32,000 bases of DNA from an uncultured Opitutales bacterium (GCA_934613415.1 CAKTSY010000004.1:60001-92000); one strand, 5' to 3'. Counted from the first letter of the stretch, positions 17,332-23,442 are shown. The notes: generated by a model from the letters alone, not told the origin. A program made the numbers and translations.

Positions 17332-19413
17332 TTATTTATCCTTGCCTACTATCGTAACAGGCATAATTTTGTATCTTGTACGGCAGTCATCTATATTAAC
17401 TAGCATTGTAGATCTTTGAATTTCTTTTTGAAGCAACCTAGAAAGCTTTAAATTATGCTTTCTCATAGATTTTGCATATTCCATATTCAGCAATAATTTG
17501 TATAAATGCACAAAACCGCCTTTTATAGCGTCATTAAATACTTCAAAAGAATCGCCTTCGACCCCAATTGCAGTTGTTTCGATAGGCAAAACATAGCCCG
17601 TGTTTGTTGTTATTAAAACAAACATATGTCCAGGGATAATAACCAATGACGGATTTAAGCCTATAGACTTGGCAAAAGATGCAAACAATACGCTGCCGTC
17701 TACGCAATTTGCCTGATTAGAATATATAGATTCATCTATAAAGCGAACCCTTTGCGCGAACATAGTACTGTCTCTTGCAACGCTTTCTGTGGCACTACTA
17801 TACACAATTTTCCTATCCCTTAACACGCGCCAAAACGCATACATTTGGTCCATAACGCCCCTATCTCCTAATTGTTCGCCATCAAAATGTTTTATATATC
17901 CCTTTTGTATGGCTTCTTTGCGAAGCTCTTCTATTATAGGGTGGTTTTCGTTAACAAAGGCGGCAAACATACGCTTATAGTCGCGCACACCTTTGCCAAG
18001 CAAGCCGGGACCTGCAAGCAGCACATCGTTTACGGGATTTACTACCGCAGAAACTATAACCTTTTGTGTTTCCTTCTCGTTTACCTTATAGTTGATGGTA
18101 ATCGAAGTTTTATATGGATTTTTTACCTCCATTAGCTTTTTATTATTCCAGCTTATTACGGGGTAAAAATATATTTCTTTTCTGCCGTCTATTTTTACAA
18201 TGCAATCGTTCTCGGTTCTGTTTATTATACCGCACGAACTTTCTATAGTATACGAAAGCTTAATGTTTTCGAACCCATTGGCATCTTCAATATTTAGTTT
18301 AAAATATATAAAAGGATTTCCCGTTCCGTCTATATTTTTCAAATTTACCGCATTCCCATCGGTATACATATAGGGCGAATCGCTTGCAAACAAGTTTACG
18401 TCGGCAAGAAGCAAAGACGGAAAAATATTTTTATTAAATTCAACCCCCGTAGAAACGTCGTAAAAAATTTTTGCAGGGCAAATAGAAGAGAAAAAGCTGC
18501 GGTCTTTTTCGTAGTCGTTTACTTTGCATTTTATATTAAACCTTACCGACTCGGATTTTTCCAAACCTTTCAGGTAGTCGATACTAACGCCTAAAGGCGG
18601 GTTATACACATATTTTTCCGTTCCGTTTAGATGGATTTTTTCGGTAAAATCGCCACCTATAACGTGCTTCGATTCCACATCTATCTTAGCGTTTAACTCT
18701 AAAGTCTTAACCAAATTGGCTCGTCTGGGAACAATTTCTACGTTTATCAATTCGTTTGCGTACTTTTCGCCGGCAAGTATTCTGCCTCCGTATATTTTTG
18801 GAGGAATACTAATGTTTATATCCACTTTTGGCGTGTTGATATACTCTATATCTTCCTTGCACAACAAATTTATGTTCATTATAAACATGCGCTCTTTTTC
18901 GTCCACAAAAATCAAGCGGCCGCCGTCGTTGCTAAGAATTGCACCTCTTACAAACTGCCCTTTTTTGCTTTTCCAAACGCGCATCATATCGTCGCTTACA
19001 AACTCTTTTATTTTTTTGTTTATAATAGCTATTACGCGGTTGCCCTCCTCTACCATATCCACGCCTTCTTGGTAGATTTTTTCGCCTTCTCTTCGCGTGT
19101 TTTCCTGACTAAAATGTTGATAGTGCCCAGTTAACCCGCCACTCATTAACATCTTATAGTCTCTAGCGTTTCGCATTGCATCGCCCTGCTTAATTTTTTC
19201 CTTTCCAGACTTTATAAGTTTGTCTGCTTTTTTTCGGGCACTATACAACATTTCAACACGATTTATGCCGTATATCAACTCTAAGCGTTTATCCTCTTCT
19301 TGTGCGTTGCGAGAAGATTGTTTATAATAACTTCTTGTAGGAGAATAAGCTAGCAAATTGCCCGCAAATAAGAAACATACCAACAAATACACAAGTATTC
19401 TAGATGTGTGCAT
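17332..19413 (-). CDS. Secreted protein of unknown function with an SHD1-like domain and a possible C-terminal transglutaminase-like Cys/His core, 693 aa
   Basis: ORF 17332..19431 starts with TTG, so I prefer ATG 19413 (MHTSRILVYLLVCFLFAGNLLAYS, a signal peptide). MRVWKSKKGQFVRGAILSNDGGRLIFVDEKERMFIMNINLLCKEDIEYIN resembles the SLA1-homology SHD1 domain. The C-terminal QANCVDGSVLFASFAKSIGLNPSLVIIPGHMFV resembles a transglutaminase-core Cys...His arrangement (low certainty). Confidence 0.8.
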   Translation of the reverse strand: MHTSRILVYLLVCFLFAGNLLAYSPTRSYYKQSSRNAQEEDKRLELIYGINRVEMLYSARKKADKLIKSGKEKIKQGDAMRNARDYKMLMSGGLTGHYQHFSQENTRREGEKIYQEGVDMVEEGNRVIAIINKKIKEFVSDDMMRVWKSKKGQFVRGAILSNDGGRLIFVDEKERMFIMNINLLCKEDIEYINTPKVDINISIPPKIYGGRILAGEKYANELINVEIVPRRANLVKTLELNAKIDVESKHVIGGDFTEKIHLNGTEKYVYNPPLGVSIDYLKGLEKSESVRFNIKCKVNDYEKDRSFFSSICPAKIFYDVSTGVEFNKNIFPSLLLADVNLFASDSPYMYTDGNAVNLKNIDGTGNPFIYFKLNIEDANGFENIKLSYTIESSCGIINRTENDCIVKIDGRKEIYFYPVISWNNKKLMEVKNPYKTSITINYKVNEKETQKVIVSAVVNPVNDVLLAGPGLLGKGVRDYKRMFAAFVNENHPIIEELRKEAIQKGYIKHFDGEQLGDRGVMDQMYAFWRVLRDRKIVYSSATESVARDSTMFAQRVRFIDESIYSNQANCVDGSVLFASFAKSIGLNPSLVIIPGHMFVLITTNTGYVLPIETTAIGVEGDSFEVFNDAIKGGFVHLYKLLLNMEYAKSMRKHNLKLSRLLQKEIQRSTMLVNIDDCRTRYKIMPVTIVGKDK

Positions 19414-19438
19414 AAAAAAACCTTTTAGCAAACAGCTA

Positions 19439-19618
19439 CTATTTGCTTTTTTTGGGAGACGAAACCGCTTTTTGCGAGTCGGTATTTTTCGATAATTCGC
19501 GCTCTATGTGCTGGCGAATCTTGCGTTTTAAAATATCGTTGCGGCTGTTCTCGATACTAGTATATGCGTCCTTTAGGCTCTTTAAAATTTCAGCGTCGTT
19601 CAATGGTTTGTCGCTCAT
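19439..19618 (-). CDS. Unannotated small ORF, 59 aa, translationally coupled to the sigma factor gene
   Basis: It falls below the 60-aa ORF-track cutoff. Hand translation: MSDKPLNDAEILKSLKDAYTSIENSRNDILKRKIRQHIERELSKNTDSQKAVSSPKKSK*. Its ATG (19618-19616) overlaps the sigma stop TGA (19617-19615) as ATGA. It ends 26 nt before the next gene start and has no TM segment. Confidence 0.5.
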   Translation of the reverse strand: MSDKPLNDAEILKSLKDAYTSIENSRNDILKRKIRQHIERELSKNTDSQKAVSSPKKSK

Positions 19619-20280
19619 TTTTCAAGTTCCTTTCTGTAGTTTTCCTCTTCGAGTTTCGCCCGAAGCTTCTTTAGCACCCTGTGCACACATGTATCTATAA
19701 CATTGCGACTTACACCCAACATTTCGGCAATTTCGGTCGGTTTTTTACCCTCAAGCTGGCTCAATTCAAAAATAAGGCAGCTTTGCGGCGAGCACGAAAC
19801 CCTTACGCTTTCCCAAGCGTCCATTATAACGCTTTTTTTGTACTCGTCGGCTTCGTCGGCCTCCAGCTTTTCGAAAGGCGAGTTTTCAAGAATAATGCCG
19901 TGTTCGTGTTTTACCATATCTTCCATCAAATCTATAATTTCTATGGAAACCGAACGCTTCTTATTCTTGTTCCTGATATAGTCTATAACTCTGCGCGTTA
20001 TAACCTGTTTTAAAAATCCCCTAAAGCGGTATTTGCCCTTTTCGTACTTGCCGTCTTCAAAAGTTTTTATAACCGATATTACGCTTGCCGAAATAATGTC
20101 TTGAATATCCTCGTCCGACACTCCACTCCAGCCTATGTACTTAAATACATTTACAGCCATAGAATGCATTGTCTGATAGTATATGTCAAAAAACACGCTC
20201 CACGCCTGCTGCCAAACCACTCCTTGTTCGCGGTTTAACATTTGCGAGATAACGCTCTTTGGTGTATCGGGGCACTTCAT
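19615..20280 (-). CDS. ECF-type (group 4) sigma-70 family RNA polymerase sigma factor, 221 aa
   Basis: Region 2-like FRGFLKQVITRRVIDYIR and region 4 HTH LIFELSQLEGKKPTEIAEMLGVSRNVIDTCVHRVLKKLRAKL. It lies directly downstream of a Ser/Thr kinase gene. Confidence 0.85.
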   Translation of the reverse strand: MKCPDTPKSVISQMLNREQGVVWQQAWSVFFDIYYQTMHSMAVNVFKYIGWSGVSDEDIQDIISASVISVIKTFEDGKYEKGKYRFRGFLKQVITRRVIDYIRNKNKKRSVSIEIIDLMEDMVKHEHGIILENSPFEKLEADEADEYKKSVIMDAWESVRVSCSPQSCLIFELSQLEGKKPTEIAEMLGVSRNVIDTCVHRVLKKLRAKLEEENYRKELEK

Positions 20281-20325
20281 ATACTCTGATATTTCGGTAT
20301 TACAAAAAAAATCTTACAGCAAAAG

Positions 20326-21648
20326 CTAAAGAATGCTTAGCCTTTGCGGCCTAATACCGTATCGGTTTGCGCCTTTTTGACCCTTAAATGTCATATACAC
20401 AAAATAGAACACAACCCATATAAGCAGGTCGTATAGCGCAAATCTTATTTGGTGTATGCTGCTTGTTAATGCTATCGAGTTTATTATTCTAAAAAGCACC
20501 ATTGTGCCGAACATACACACGCCAAAAAGCGTGCTTTTGCCCGCATCGTGCAACCGCTTTATTGAAATAGCAAACAGCGGCCAATTAAACAAATAGCCAA
20601 TGTAAAGCCCTATCATATAAAACGAATTCATTACAACGCCGCTGAAATTTATTATAAGGAACAGCAAAATATAAATCAGCGTAAAAGTTTTGCGGTTAAT
20701 TCTGCCTGTTATTGTAAATATAGACGTAGTTTTTTCGGCGTTTGCTAGAACAATTCTGTCTTCTTGCGCAGTATCGTCCGAAAATTCAATGTCGCAATCG
20801 TTTTCGTTTAAATCAATAAAGTTTGCGGCAAAATCGGCTATGCAAAAAAATCTTTCGTTGGTCTTTTCGCGCGTTGCCCTCAGCAAACTGCGGTGAAAAT
20901 GCTCGTATGCCGAAATGTCGCAGGCTGCCATTTTAGATTTACCCTGCGGGAACATATAGCTTGGCCTACCCATTGTGTCCGGCGGGTTGCCGCTTAAAAA
21001 GTAGTATATGGTTCTTGCCAAGCCCCACATATCGGGGTTGCCGTGCGTTTTAAAATACCAGGTTGGCGGAGTGTAGTCGGGCGTGCCCGCCACGCTTGCG
21101 CTTTCGGTATCGGCGCGCATAAGACCAATATCGGCCAAACACGGCTTTGAATTTATAAACAAAATATTGTCGGGTTTTATATCCCTATGCAAAAAGCCCT
21201 TTTTGTTTAAAAAGCCCACCGCCTTAAATATGGGGTTGAAAATTTCCAAAACCTCGTTTGCGGTAAATGTGTCGCCTTTTTTATATCGTTCGTCCACCAA
21301 AGTTTTTAGGGTTTTTGGCTTCCAGTTTTCGTCTACGGGCGAAGACGCGCCCTCGCCGTCGGCAAGCGGCATTATATACGCGAGAGAATTCTCGCCTATT
21401 TTTGCGTCTAAAATCGGAATTATGCTTTCGGGGTTTTCCTTTTGAATGAATTTCTTGTAGCTTTCTATAGACTTTAGTTCTTTTTCGTAGGGCTTTTGCT
21501 CTTTTCTGTAAACTTTTTGCTGCGAATTCGAAACTTTCTTTAAGGCGTAAAAATTGCCCTGTTCGTCTTTTACAAGATACACGCAGCCAAAGCCGCCGCG
21601 GCCAATCTCCCTTACAATGGAAACCCTATCTATCAAACCCTCTTGCAT
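20326..21648 (-). CDS. Hanks-type Ser/Thr protein kinase fused to a C-terminal DUF805 membrane domain, 440 aa
   Basis: Gly loop GRGGFGCVY, catalytic Lys in FYALKKV, HRDIKPDNIL, DIG in place of DFG, and GTPDYTPP. The C-terminal ~130 aa (GRINRKTF...SIKRLHDAGKS...GANRYG) matches the DUF805 pattern and has about 4 TM helices. Confidence 0.9.
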   Translation of the reverse strand: MQEGLIDRVSIVREIGRGGFGCVYLVKDEQGNFYALKKVSNSQQKVYRKEQKPYEKELKSIESYKKFIQKENPESIIPILDAKIGENSLAYIMPLADGEGASSPVDENWKPKTLKTLVDERYKKGDTFTANEVLEIFNPIFKAVGFLNKKGFLHRDIKPDNILFINSKPCLADIGLMRADTESASVAGTPDYTPPTWYFKTHGNPDMWGLARTIYYFLSGNPPDTMGRPSYMFPQGKSKMAACDISAYEHFHRSLLRATREKTNERFFCIADFAANFIDLNENDCDIEFSDDTAQEDRIVLANAEKTTSIFTITGRINRKTFTLIYILLFLIINFSGVVMNSFYMIGLYIGYLFNWPLFAISIKRLHDAGKSTLFGVCMFGTMVLFRIINSIALTSSIHQIRFALYDLLIWVVFYFVYMTFKGQKGANRYGIRPQRLSIL

Positions 21649-21668
21649 ATTATTGGTAGTTTAGGTAT

Positions 21669-21696
21669 AGTATATGGAGATATTTATTCAAGGCAA
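21669..21696 (-). promoter_or_regulatory. Candidate promoter of the kinase-sigma operon (-35 TTGCCT 21696-21691, 16-nt spacer, -10 TATACT 21674-21669)
   Basis: Read from the minus strand about 20-50 nt upstream of ATG 21648, in an AT-rich 280-bp intergenic region. Confidence 0.3.
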
Positions 21697-21927: not shown

Positions 21928-23442
21928 CTACTTTAACTTAACAACAATATATCCGTAGGCCTGCAAGTTAGCAGTTGTGTTTTGCCCGTTGCACTCTAGC
22001 TTTGCGCCGTATTCCAAAAGCGTTTTTGCCCCATTTGTATCAATCTTAACATTTGCCGAAACGGGCTTATTCTTTGTATTTACAACAACCGCAAATTTTT
22101 CGCTAGCACACTCTCTTGCAAAGCAAACCAAATCTTTTTCTGCCGAAGTATCCAGCCATTTTGTATTGCCGTCGAAGAAAGCGCGGTGTTCGCTTCGCAG
22201 TTGCGAAAGCTTTTTAAGCAAAGCAATTCTTCTTTTGCCTGCATCTGTAAGGGCGTTTTGCCAACCTACAAAATAGCGGCCGTGCTGTGGCGAAGAAAAC
22301 ATAGAAAAATAGCTGTCGTCGGCAATTTCGTTGCCCGAAAAAATCATCGGTATTCCGTCTATTGTATAGTTTATAACCAAAACAGCGTCCATACCGCGAT
22401 GTGTAAACAATTTTTCGTAACGGGCCTTTGCGTTCATACAAATATCGCTTGCAGTGTCGTGGTTGTCCATGTCTCTAAGCAGTCTAGAGCCTTTGGCATA
22501 TTTGTTTTTGTCTAAAACCCACTTGGTTTTAAGGGCGTTTGCGTCGGACTTGCCCGAAAACACCTTTGCCAATTCCCTTTGCCAAATAAAGCCGTAGGTT
22601 GCGTCGTACGCGTCTACCTGACTGTCGGCGCGGCGGCTTTCGGCAAGCATAAACAAGTCGCTTTTAATTTTGCTTATGCGCTTGTAACCTTCTGCCCAAA
22701 AGTCTTTGGGCACCGAACCTTCAACGTCGGTTCTATAGCCGTCTACGTCGAATTTTTCCACAAAATACTCCATATTGCGCCACATTTTTTCTCGCAATTT
22801 GGGGTTGTTAAAATTTAGTTCGGGGAAACCCCACTTGCCGTTTTTAACGTTGCCAGATTCGTCGCATACAACAAGGTTTTTGTCTTCGGCAATCATTGTG
22901 GCTTTGGGCCCGCAGTGATAGTAAACCAAATCCAAAATTACTCTTAGCCCCAACTTGTGGGCGTCGGACACAAAATTTTTAAGGTCGGCCTCGGTTCCGT
23001 AGTCGGGCTCTATGGCAAAATAGTCTTTTAGCCTATAGGGATTTTTGGGGTTGCCAGTGTTCGATGCCCTTTGCCTTTTGCTCCAAAAAGCTTGGTCTGC
23101 ATCGTCGTCGATGGCAACTACGGGGCATAAATATACAACGTTTGCACCGCTTTCTTTTATGTGCGGCAACATTTTGCGCGCAGAATTAAGCGTGCCTTCT
23201 TGCGTAAATACAGGCAAAAGAATTTGGTAAACTATTGCCTTTTTGTTTTTTTCGGAAGTTGCCCTTGCCATTAAATGCGAAGCGTTTTTAGAAGTGTCCG
23301 CTTCGTCGGCTGCGGTTGTGCCGCCTTGTTGAACGGGCTTTTGCGCCGCGCTTTGGGTCGTTTTATTGTTTGTTGAATTGCAGCCCGCCAAAAGCAAAAA
23401 GGCGACAATTAAAGCCGTAATTTTATATGCAAAATGCTTCAT
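21928..23442 (-). CDS. GH13 alpha-amylase family glycoside hydrolase, lipoprotein, 504 aa
   Basis: Lipoprotein signal MKHFAYKITALIVAFLLLAGC. GH13 conserved regions are present: RVILDLVYYHCG (I), DGYRTDVEG (II), FMLAESRR (III) and DMDNHDT (IV). Confidence 0.9.
   Translation of the reverse strand: MKHFAYKITALIVAFLLLAGCNSTNNKTTQSAAQKPVQQGGTTAADEADTSKNASHLMARATSEKNKKAIVYQILLPVFTQEGTLNSARKMLPHIKESGANVVYLCPVVAIDDDADQAFWSKRQRASNTGNPKNPYRLKDYFAIEPDYGTEADLKNFVSDAHKLGLRVILDLVYYHCGPKATMIAEDKNLVVCDESGNVKNGKWGFPELNFNNPKLREKMWRNMEYFVEKFDVDGYRTDVEGSVPKDFWAEGYKRISKIKSDLFMLAESRRADSQVDAYDATYGFIWQRELAKVFSGKSDANALKTKWVLDKNKYAKGSRLLRDMDNHDTASDICMNAKARYEKLFTHRGMDAVLVINYTIDGIPMIFSGNEIADDSYFSMFSSPQHGRYFVGWQNALTDAGKRRIALLKKLSQLRSEHRAFFDGNTKWLDTSAEKDLVCFARECASEKFAVVVNTKNKPVSANVKIDTNGAKTLLEYGAKLECNGQNTTANLQAYGYIVVKLK

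Follow-up and report, generated by a model that had tools for sequence, protein, structure and literature searches.

A putative signalling cassette of kinase, sigma factor and mini-protein in gut Opitutales, with a local exported cargo protein

Introduction

A 32,000-nucleotide (nt) stretch of DNA from an uncultured Opitutales bacterium (GCA_934613415.1, CAKTSY010000004.1:60001-92000), here called the window, contains four co-directional minus-strand open reading frames (ORFs) at positions 17332-21648. They encode, in this order, a membrane-anchored Hanks-type Ser/Thr kinase, an extracytoplasmic function (ECF)-type sigma factor, a mini-protein of 59 amino acids (aa) and a 693-aa exported protein. 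Our analysis suggests, with a probability that we put at about 55%, that this locus is a lineage-specific three-component signalling cassette of gut Opitutales, joined here by one local piece of cargo.

In the proposed cassette, the membrane Hanks kinase would be the sensor. Its DUF805 multi-pass anchor has almost no exposed loop, so that sensing would probably take place within the membrane. In response to a signal, the kinase would phosphorylate the sigma factor, which would be expressed from an ECF-type promoter of its own (TGTAAGA-N15-CGAAAT) and translated in 1:1 coupling with the soluble, basic mini-protein. The mini-protein would bind the sigma factor and keep it inactive, acting as a small cytoplasmic anti-sigma factor, and phosphorylation would tip the balance toward RNA polymerase. 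Active sigma factor would then transcribe its own operon, a positive autoregulation buffered by the co-made mini-protein, together with cargo genes. The only adjacent cargo gene in the window would be the co-transcribed gene for the 693-aa exported protein; in relatives, cargo would include precursors of graspetides (ATP-grasp ribosomally synthesized and post-translationally modified peptides, RiPPs), a Sel1-repeat protein and small secreted Cys-rich peptides. The phosphotransfer, the phospho-acceptor, the mini-protein-sigma interaction and the sign of that interaction are steps that we infer.

ECF groups that are encoded beside Ser/Thr kinases typically lack anti-sigma factors, and the kinase-linked kinds already established are ECF43, 59-62, 217, 267 and 283 (PMC7826278). 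Members of ECF43 are activated by direct phosphorylation (PMC7826278, PMC13147305). The other kinase-linked groups have retained DAED-like motifs, and a different mode of action is expected for them; in a further arrangement, PknB phosphorylates the soluble anti-sigma factors RshA and RseA and thereby frees SigH and SigE (PMC8999054).

Results

Conservation of the kinase, sigma factor and mini-protein genes

The four ORFs are present and co-directional, as an earlier note on this DNA had described (coordinates in Table 1). Two of its three spacers, the 45 nt between the kinase and sigma genes and the 4-nt ATGA overlap between the sigma and mini-protein genes, proved accurate; the third, between the mini-protein gene and the 693-aa gene, is 25 nt rather than 26 nt. 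Identical copies of the window proteins were found on more than 20 public metagenome contigs and in one Opitutales (Verrucomicrobiota) metagenome-assembled genome, where the annotations go no further than 'protein kinase' and 'sigma-70 family RNA polymerase sigma factor', with no name for the remaining two proteins. The exact mini-protein was found on 33 contigs and the exact 693-aa protein on 12.

Synteny was compared across 13 GTDB species-level genomes and further metagenome loci (related loci are designated here by L numbers, and the further ones include L013), with sigma factor identities to the window of 35-96%. A Hanks kinase of the same family adjoined the sigma gene in 13/13 GTDB species loci, as well as in L013 and in the window, although its placement took three forms (upstream on the same strand, divergent or convergent). 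In 15/15 loci, an ORF of 59-77 aa began within -7 to +3 nt of the sigma stop codon. The flanking genes differed between species, so that the kinase, sigma and mini-protein genes appear to move as a unit, and gene order identifies these three genes only as the conserved core. Of the four-gene synteny whose conservation the earlier note had proposed to test, the triad held, while the 693-aa gene was found by tblastn only in this species.

No anti-sigma Pfam domain was detected among the proteins within 10 kb on either side of the module, and no membrane partner of the sigma factor was seen in this neighbourhood. The reported absence of a membrane anti-sigma factor was therefore confirmed, and the kinase-sigma linkage without such a factor was found in 13/13 species-level genomes. 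The GC content of the 17-22 kb stretch was 0.375-0.404, as compared to 0.44-0.48 in its flanks.

The mini-protein

The mini-protein has 14 Lys/Arg and 9 Asp/Glu residues, a predicted isoelectric point of 9.75, and no transmembrane or hydrophobic segment, and its ATG overlaps the TGA of the sigma gene. A core of the form E-I-[IL]-x-x-L-K-x-A-Y-x-x-[IM] ... R-K-I-[KR]-x-x-I-E was conserved in the family alignment, in which only A18 was invariant and no Ser/Thr column was conserved. Together, the alignment and the positional coupling identify the mini-ORF as a real conserved gene and bear out its description as a soluble, highly charged product translationally coupled to the sigma factor. Searches of Pfam (even at E<=10), NCBIfam, PADLOC and the PDB returned no relatives, and a profile of the mini-protein family, run against all PDB chains, matched only a spurious designed protein; the PDB presumably holds NepR chains.

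The mini-protein is probably a small soluble sigma partner and likely an anti-sigma factor. We favour the latter role for three reasons: sigma/anti-sigma pairs are canonically laid out as an autoregulated operon in which the stop and start codons overlap; the sigma factor keeps its acidic core-binding motif and so would need restraint rather than charge restoration; and there are precedents for anti-sigma factors that are small and soluble (NepR, CfrX) or controlled by kinases (RshA, RseA) (PMC8999054).

The sigma factor

The sigma factor is of the ECF (group IV) type, with sigma2 and sigma4 regions (TIGR02937, E = 7.6e-19, 67.9 bits vs a cut-off of 42.9). It scored above the Pfam cut-offs for PF04542, PF08281 and PF07638 (28.8 bits for PF07638) and below all NCBIfam subfamily cut-offs, with 22.9 bits vs 183.75 for the planctomycete subfamily model. 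Its profile matched SigH and SigE in the PDB. Relatives were rare, with 13 among 5.8 billion proteins searched, all of them in gut Opitutales.

In region 2.2, the segment that aligns with DAEDLTQE of SigH and SigE keeps the acidic DxxD residues D58 and D61. Asp or Glu occupied both positions in most relatives, and one relative has the fully canonical DxxDxxQE; both acidic residues were lost in the sub-clade L023-L026 (A..A, V..G). The uncharged QTTA or STTA that defines ECF43 is absent, so that, judged by this motif, the window sigma factor is not ECF43-like. Since it keeps DxxD, the charge-restoration mechanism of ECF43 would not be simply transferable to it.

At S64, most members of the family carry Ser in place of the conserved Gln, making this residue a weak candidate for the phospho-acceptor. 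T6 was set aside as a phosphorylation site because, in our reading, it corresponds to the N-terminal helix cap that ECF sigma factors ordinarily have.

The promoter motif and its candidate regulon

When the 70 nt upstream of each sigma start were aligned, CGGAAGA-N15-CGAAA(A/T) was found before the sigma ATG in 14/14 related loci, ending 7-21 nt before it (7-10 nt in 12/14). This element resembles a typical ECF-like -35/-10 pair. The window and L018 carry TGTAAGA-N15-CGAAAT in the same register, and we consider the window copy a candidate promoter on account of its position rather than its score. Because the motif ends only a few nt before the sigma ATG, a near-leaderless sigma mRNA is implied, and the transcript covering the sigma, mini-protein and possibly the 693-aa genes would be leaderless or nearly so. 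The motif lies downstream of the kinase gene in several loci and inside the 3' end of the kinase gene in L027, which places the kinase outside the autoregulated unit; it is probably expressed from a separate, non-autoregulated transcript.

A matrix built only from ten sigma-upstream sites gave 24 matches of at least 16 bits in 164 kb of related loci, as compared to 0.6 in shuffled sequences. These led to several kinds of putative cargo. A graspetide gene pair, consisting of a 72-75-aa precursor that starts with MII(S/T)TT and an ATP-grasp RiPP maturase of about 305 aa (for the 305-aa protein, TIGR04187, E = 8.8e-19; AMdnB in the PDB, E = 3.5e-13), lies beside the triad in six lineages (L013:2828-4046, L019:11531-12730, L024:9168-10346, L027:4717-5895, L028:4713-5896 and L030:4838-6008). 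The motif was located less than 100 nt upstream of the 75-aa precursor genes in L013, L019, L024 and L027 (16.1-23.4 bits). No match of at least 14.5 bits preceded the L030 precursor gene; of the six lineages, all but L028 were scanned. The graspetide pair is absent from the 32-kb window.

The motif was also found upstream of the gene for a 709-aa Sel1-repeat protein (20.0 bits) and upstream of genes for secreted 68-69-aa peptides in L023 and L026 (17.8 and 23.4 bits), and in L021 it stands in front of a 14-codon remnant of the peptide gene. The 68-69-aa proteins have a signal peptide and two CxxCxGxG motifs, similar to those of the DnaJ zinc finger, and are encoded just after the mini-protein gene (L023:8845-9133, L026:5092-5383). 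Other small secreted Cys-containing ORFs were noted near the module in L022 and L009.

The earlier note had suggested looking for a shared motif upstream of 21648 and 19413, the starts of the kinase and 693-aa genes. No sigma-type promoter was found upstream of either gene in the window; the motif lies instead upstream of the sigma gene. Nor did the window hold a convincing second sigma-type site near any gene start. Its best match to the matrix, GCCGAAGA-N15-CGAAAA at 12116-12088 on the minus strand (18.7 bits), falls within a gene for a LarC-like nickel-insertion protein, some 330 nt ahead of the next gene; we take it for a probable chance match, an internal promoter being less likely. Upstream of the kinase, the promoter put forward earlier corresponds to two sigma-70-like matches, TGGGCA-16-TATCAT and TTGCCT-16-TATACT. 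They are no better than chance expectation (20 such matches in the region vs 15.8 expected) and offer a weak candidate for a housekeeping promoter of the kinase.

The kinase

The motifs of the kinase domain are intact: a GRGGFG loop (aa 16), the lysine of ALKK (aa 35-38), HRDIKPDN (aa 154), DIG (aa 173-175) and GTPDYTPP (aa 188-195). These catalytic signatures are kept in the window kinase and in all 13 orthologues, so the enzyme looks catalytically competent; the possibility of a dead kinase, raised in the earlier note, finds no support in its Gly-rich loop, Lys, HRD or the Asp of DIG. DIG and TPP, which had been listed as unusual features, are indeed present. However, DIG and GTPxY(T/S)PP recur throughout the 13 orthologues (APE is kept in one), and they are therefore traits of the whole kinase family and no sign of an inactive enzyme.

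The DUF805 anchor was likewise confirmed; the kinase has three to four hydrophobic segments, and a KRLHD loop lies at aa 364 of the domain. It appears, however, to be one of two interchangeable kinase anchors. DUF805 occurs in five orthologues, the L009, L015 and L029 kinases among those carrying it, and the others lack it and have one transmembrane helix followed by a helical ectodomain of about 200-300 aa. Our literature search on DUF805 kinases found nothing pertinent.

Two kinases of this family flank the sigma gene in several loci (L019:9315-11408, L028:10556-11845 and L029:8911-10248). In such loci, one kinase is anchored by DUF805 and the other by a single transmembrane helix with an ectodomain, and the upstream kinase of L028 is frameshifted. 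The presence of two kinase types around one sigma gene suggests that two sensors may feed one sigma factor. As a separate observation, phage-integrase gene fragments of varying length lie directly upstream of the kinase in the Puniceicoccaceae Marseille-Q1082-type locus (L009:3268-4348 and the equivalents in L010-L012), with a reverse-oriented GGAAGA motif between the fragments and the kinase.

The 693-aa exported protein

The 693-aa gene starts 25 nt after the mini-protein gene with no terminator-like site between them, so it is most simply viewed as read-through cargo and is probably co-transcribed with the sigma and mini-protein genes. It is also strain-variable. Residues 88-628 were deleted in L018 (96% sigma identity) and in L006-L008 (identical sigma factor); the deletion spans window positions 17529-19152 (compared with L018:8867-9314), leaves a 98-aa remnant and has about 6 nt shared at its junction. 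A further deletion of 110 nt was seen in L006 and L008. Upstream of the module, the alpha-amylase gene (window 21928-23442) is reduced to its C-terminal 154 aa in L006:3726-4190 and L007:2312-2776. Because this gene is cut down in the strains that carry the 693-aa-gene deletion, strain-level gene decay appears to affect both sides of the triad there.

The protein is predicted to be exported, as proposed earlier, on the basis of a hydrophobic, signal-like segment at aa 6-24. This is followed by a helical region, a beta-rich middle region and a C-terminal domain with conserved Cys, His and Glu. The SHD1 domain claimed in the earlier note was not upheld: an excised 58-aa segment reached 12.7 bits against the PF03983 gathering cut-off of 23.7 (E = 0.12), and the whole protein gave no SHD1 match. 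Over residues 66-193, the protein shares 30% identity with the N-terminal part of the Sel1 protein encoded beside the triad in L009 and L019, which suggests that different cargo proteins carry a common export or anchoring module.

The proposal of a transglutaminase-like Cys/His core fared better. A word-based homologue search with the 693-aa protein found only the protein itself, but an exhaustive HMMER search showed that aa ~410-640 belong to a large family, which counts 1,708 representatives at E<=1e-3 (1,559 at E<=1e-10). No member has a Pfam domain in this region; those with names are called 'hypothetical' and most are unnamed. No Pfam match, including Transglut_core (PF01841), was obtained for the 693-aa protein or eight homologues, and sequence and profile searches of the PDB with the C-terminal domain found nothing. 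Invariant residues were Q554, R557, N569, C570, D572, G573, P594, H596 and E612. C570, H596 and E612 were 100% conserved in sets of 61 and 30 sequences, with spacings of 26 and 16 residues, which we take to resemble those of PNGase.

An AlphaFold model of aa 320-693, made with the 30-sequence alignment, reached a mean per-residue confidence (pLDDT) of 80.8 and a predicted template modelling score (pTM) of 0.82; a single-sequence prediction of the full protein (pLDDT 35) was unusable. The top PDB matches of the C-terminal model in Foldseek were transglutaminase 2 (E = 2.2e-5, probability 0.97), yeast PNGase (probability 1.00), mouse PNGase (0.99) and XPC/Rad4. These proteins all share the transglutaminase-like fold, and the template modelling scores (TM-scores) were low, at 0.18-0.25. 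Together with the invariant Cys, His and Glu, the model supports a transglutaminase-like fold.

Most members of the family are 'hypothetical' proteins of about 400 aa from Bacteroides and relatives. In the homologues P0086, P0029, P0100, P0152 and P0023, the domain is fused to SPOR peptidoglycan-binding domains, to TPR arrays or to a Hanks kinase, in the last case at the kinase's extracytoplasmic C-terminus, and such fusions point to an envelope or periplasmic role. The sole full-length homologue of the 693-aa protein, P0015 in L031 (36% identity), is encoded between the ATP-synthase operon and lpxA. No kinase gene, sigma gene or promoter motif was found near it, and a link between P0015 and the module was rejected on this ground.

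Table 1. Coordinates of the features in the window
Feature	Position (nt)	Strand	Details
Sigma-70-like match	21748-21721	minus	9/12
Sigma-70-like match	21696-21669	minus	9/12
Kinase	21648-20326	minus	440 aa
Hanks-type Ser/Thr kinase domain	20977-21618	minus	aa 11-224; Pfam Pkinase, E 2.5e-23, 83.3 bits
DUF805 (PF05656) multi-pass anchor	20356-20718	minus	aa 311-431; 39.5 bits vs cut-off 25.7, E 8.6e-10
ECF-type promoter-like element CTGTAAGA-N15-CGAAAT	20319-20291	minus	within the 45 nt between the kinase and sigma genes; ends 10 nt before the sigma ATG
ECF-type sigma factor	20280-19615	minus	221 aa
Sigma region 2.2	20086-20109	minus	D58-I-Q-D61-I-I-S64-A; aligned to DAEDLTQE of SigH/SigE
Mini-protein	19618-19439	minus	59 aa
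Exported protein	19413-17332	minus	693 aa
Signal-like segment	19345-19413	minus	aa 1-23; hydrophobic aa 6-24
Helical region and SHD1-like segment	18820-19218	minus	aa 66-198
Cys-His-Glu transglutaminase/PNGase-like domain (predicted)	17494-18186	minus	aa ~410-640
C570	17704-17706	minus	
H596	17626-17628	minus	
E612	17578-17580	minus	

Discussion

Several observations weigh against the proposed three-component cassette. The window copy of the promoter, with one -35 mismatch, reaches only 7.6 bits, and the window holds 30 sites of 9 bits or more. The alignments of the sigma factor and mini-protein hold no clear invariant Ser/Thr that would mark a phospho-acceptor: S64 is replaced by Ala or Gln in two homologues, and the predicted inter-helix loop of the mini-protein, which carries Ser/Thr in most members (e.g., K-K-S-P/T), has Asn in the window as well as in three further lineages. 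Nor was a phosphatase gene seen near the module. The mini-protein shows no similarity to NepR, to the zinc-binding anti-sigma (ZAS) domain or to any other Pfam or PDB anti-sigma domain, and the evidence for its anti-sigma role consists of genetic arrangement (ATGA coupling in the window, 15/15 loci). Likewise, the evidence for co-transcription of the 693-aa gene consists of the 25-nt gap and the missing terminator-like site.

Some of these points would fit other explanations. As in ECF43, phosphorylation by the kinase alone might activate an intrinsically inactive sigma factor, with the mini-protein being a co-expressed product, a positive cofactor or a chaperone. Kinase-linked ECF groups normally have no anti-sigma factor (PMC7826278), the L023-L026 sub-clade lost both DxxD acids, as ECF43 did, and the mini-protein is unlike any known anti-sigma domain. 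Nevertheless, we consider this explanation unlikely, since D58 and D61 are kept in the window and their acidic character in most relatives, one of which is canonical throughout DxxDxxQE, so that the sigma factor should bind core RNA polymerase without added charge; in addition, the universal coupling of a partner of about 60 aa is the classic sigma/anti-sigma arrangement. Alternatively, the substrate of the kinase could be the mini-protein rather than the sigma factor, and phosphorylation of this small anti-sigma factor would lead to its release or degradation, as for PknB-RshA and PknB-RseA. The precedent in Mycobacterium tuberculosis (PMC8999054) and the Ser/Thr in the predicted loop of most mini-proteins speak for such a scheme, which appears rather improbable given the Asn at this position in four lineages, including the window, and the lack of any conserved Ser/Thr column.

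A defensive role was also considered, in which the kinase would detect infection and the sigma factor would induce a toxic or defensive 693-aa Cys-His-Glu effector related to the ProA N-terminus, making the locus an anti-phage or conflict island. The kinase matches the PADLOC mad6 (2.1e-25) and PD-T4-6 models, the sigma factor a type III-E CRISPR-associated sigma model (7.7e-13) and the 693-aa protein NCBIfam antiphage_ProA (1.2e-17); the low GC content, the strain-variable cargo gene and the integrase fragment beside the module in L009 would also suit an island. However, these matches are generic and fall far under the family cut-offs (41.5 vs 460, 48.8 vs 100 and 62.7 vs 1500 bits), no MADS, BREX or ProA partner genes were present within 10 kb on either side, and the cargo is predicted to be exported, not cytoplasmic. 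We therefore regard this role as very unlikely; a literature search on ProA found nothing pertinent. No sigma relative was found on viral contigs (IMG/VR), and a phage origin of the module was rejected for this reason. Finally, the genes could be functionally independent neighbours and the mini-ORF a chance reading frame. The fourth gene is clearly not conserved, as this would predict, but the triad persists at 35-96% sigma identity in differing contexts and the mini-ORF keeps its specific motif and its coupling in all loci, so that the synteny data largely refute this highly improbable explanation.

The preferred three-component cassette shares features with several known systems. In ECF43 (EcfP/PknT of Vibrio parahaemolyticus and EcfK/PknS of Xanthomonas citri), the ECF sigma gene also adjoins a gene for a transmembrane Hanks kinase, without a membrane anti-sigma factor, and the output is local cargo, consisting there of type VI secretion system or polymyxin-resistance genes and here, putatively, of secreted proteins and RiPP genes. 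ECF43 sigma factors, however, have QTTA or STTA in place of DxxD and need phospho-Thr for core binding (PMC13147305, PMC8999054), whereas the window sigma factor keeps D58 and D61. No conserved small partner gene has been described for ECF43, whereas one is universal in this family.

The planctomycete and actinobacterial groups ECF59, 61, 62, 217 and 283, compared here by their published description, likewise show a kinase gene among their conserved neighbours and retain DAED-like motifs (PMC7826278, PMC8999054). The planctomycete groups come from the same PVC superphylum, and the window sigma factor matches PF07638, a planctomycete-type ECF model. In contrast, it falls well short of the NCBIfam planctomycete model, as given above, and its family is found only in gut Opitutales.

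The PknB-RshA/SigH and PknB-RseA/SigE systems resemble the cassette in that a Hanks kinase acts on a cytoplasmic sigma/anti-sigma pair, as it would here. RshA and RseA, however, are zinc-binding ZAS proteins of about 100-150 aa, unlike the mini-protein, which has no Cys/His motif; and PknB is a global kinase encoded elsewhere, whereas the window kinase is adjacent and apparently dedicated. NepR, the soluble anti-sigma factor of EcfG (ECF15), has about 60 aa and resembles the mini-protein in its size, solubility, predicted helical character, disordered flanks and co-transcription with the sigma gene. The two nevertheless show no sequence similarity (Pfam; mini-protein profile against the PDB, E<=10), and it is the response regulator PhyR, rather than a Ser/Thr kinase, that counters NepR. 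As to the cargo, the C-terminal domain resembles the transglutaminase-like (papain-like) Cys-His-Asp superfamily (TG2, PNGase, Rad4/XPC) in its model and in its invariant Cys, His and acidic residue, and differs in having Glu as the third residue, no Pfam match and low TM-scores.

What appears to be new here is a sigma family restricted to gut Opitutales that keeps DxxD, a universally coupled mini-protein, interchangeable DUF805 and single-helix sensors, and a defined promoter motif by which graspetide clusters and secreted proteins are tied to the module. The earlier note rated the DUF805 anchor and the DIG/TPP motifs too high; the mini-protein and the promoter/regulon link are more remarkable than it held. 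A bolder proposal, which we offer as tentative, is that the 59-aa protein is the first of a new class of small cytoplasmic anti-sigma factors or sigma adaptors, and that a dedicated membrane Hanks kinase would release its hold on a DxxD-retaining sigma factor. Such a three-component phospho-switch would stand apart from ECF43 charge restoration and might control graspetide RiPP clusters and secreted effectors in gut Verrucomicrobiota.

The mechanism of kinase-linked ECF sigma factors is understood only for ECF43, and reviews call that of the groups keeping the acidic motif unknown (PMC8999054, PMC7826278). The module described here would provide a compact, testable case, with a dedicated kinase that has two sensor types, a sigma factor with a defined promoter motif and a mini-protein that is always coupled to it. 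This mini-protein would escape standard pipelines, as it has neither a Pfam domain nor a transmembrane helix. The analysis also draws attention to a Cys-His-Glu domain family that is large (more than 1,500 members) and unannotated, and it predicts what would be the first regulator of graspetide gene clusters in gut Opitutales.

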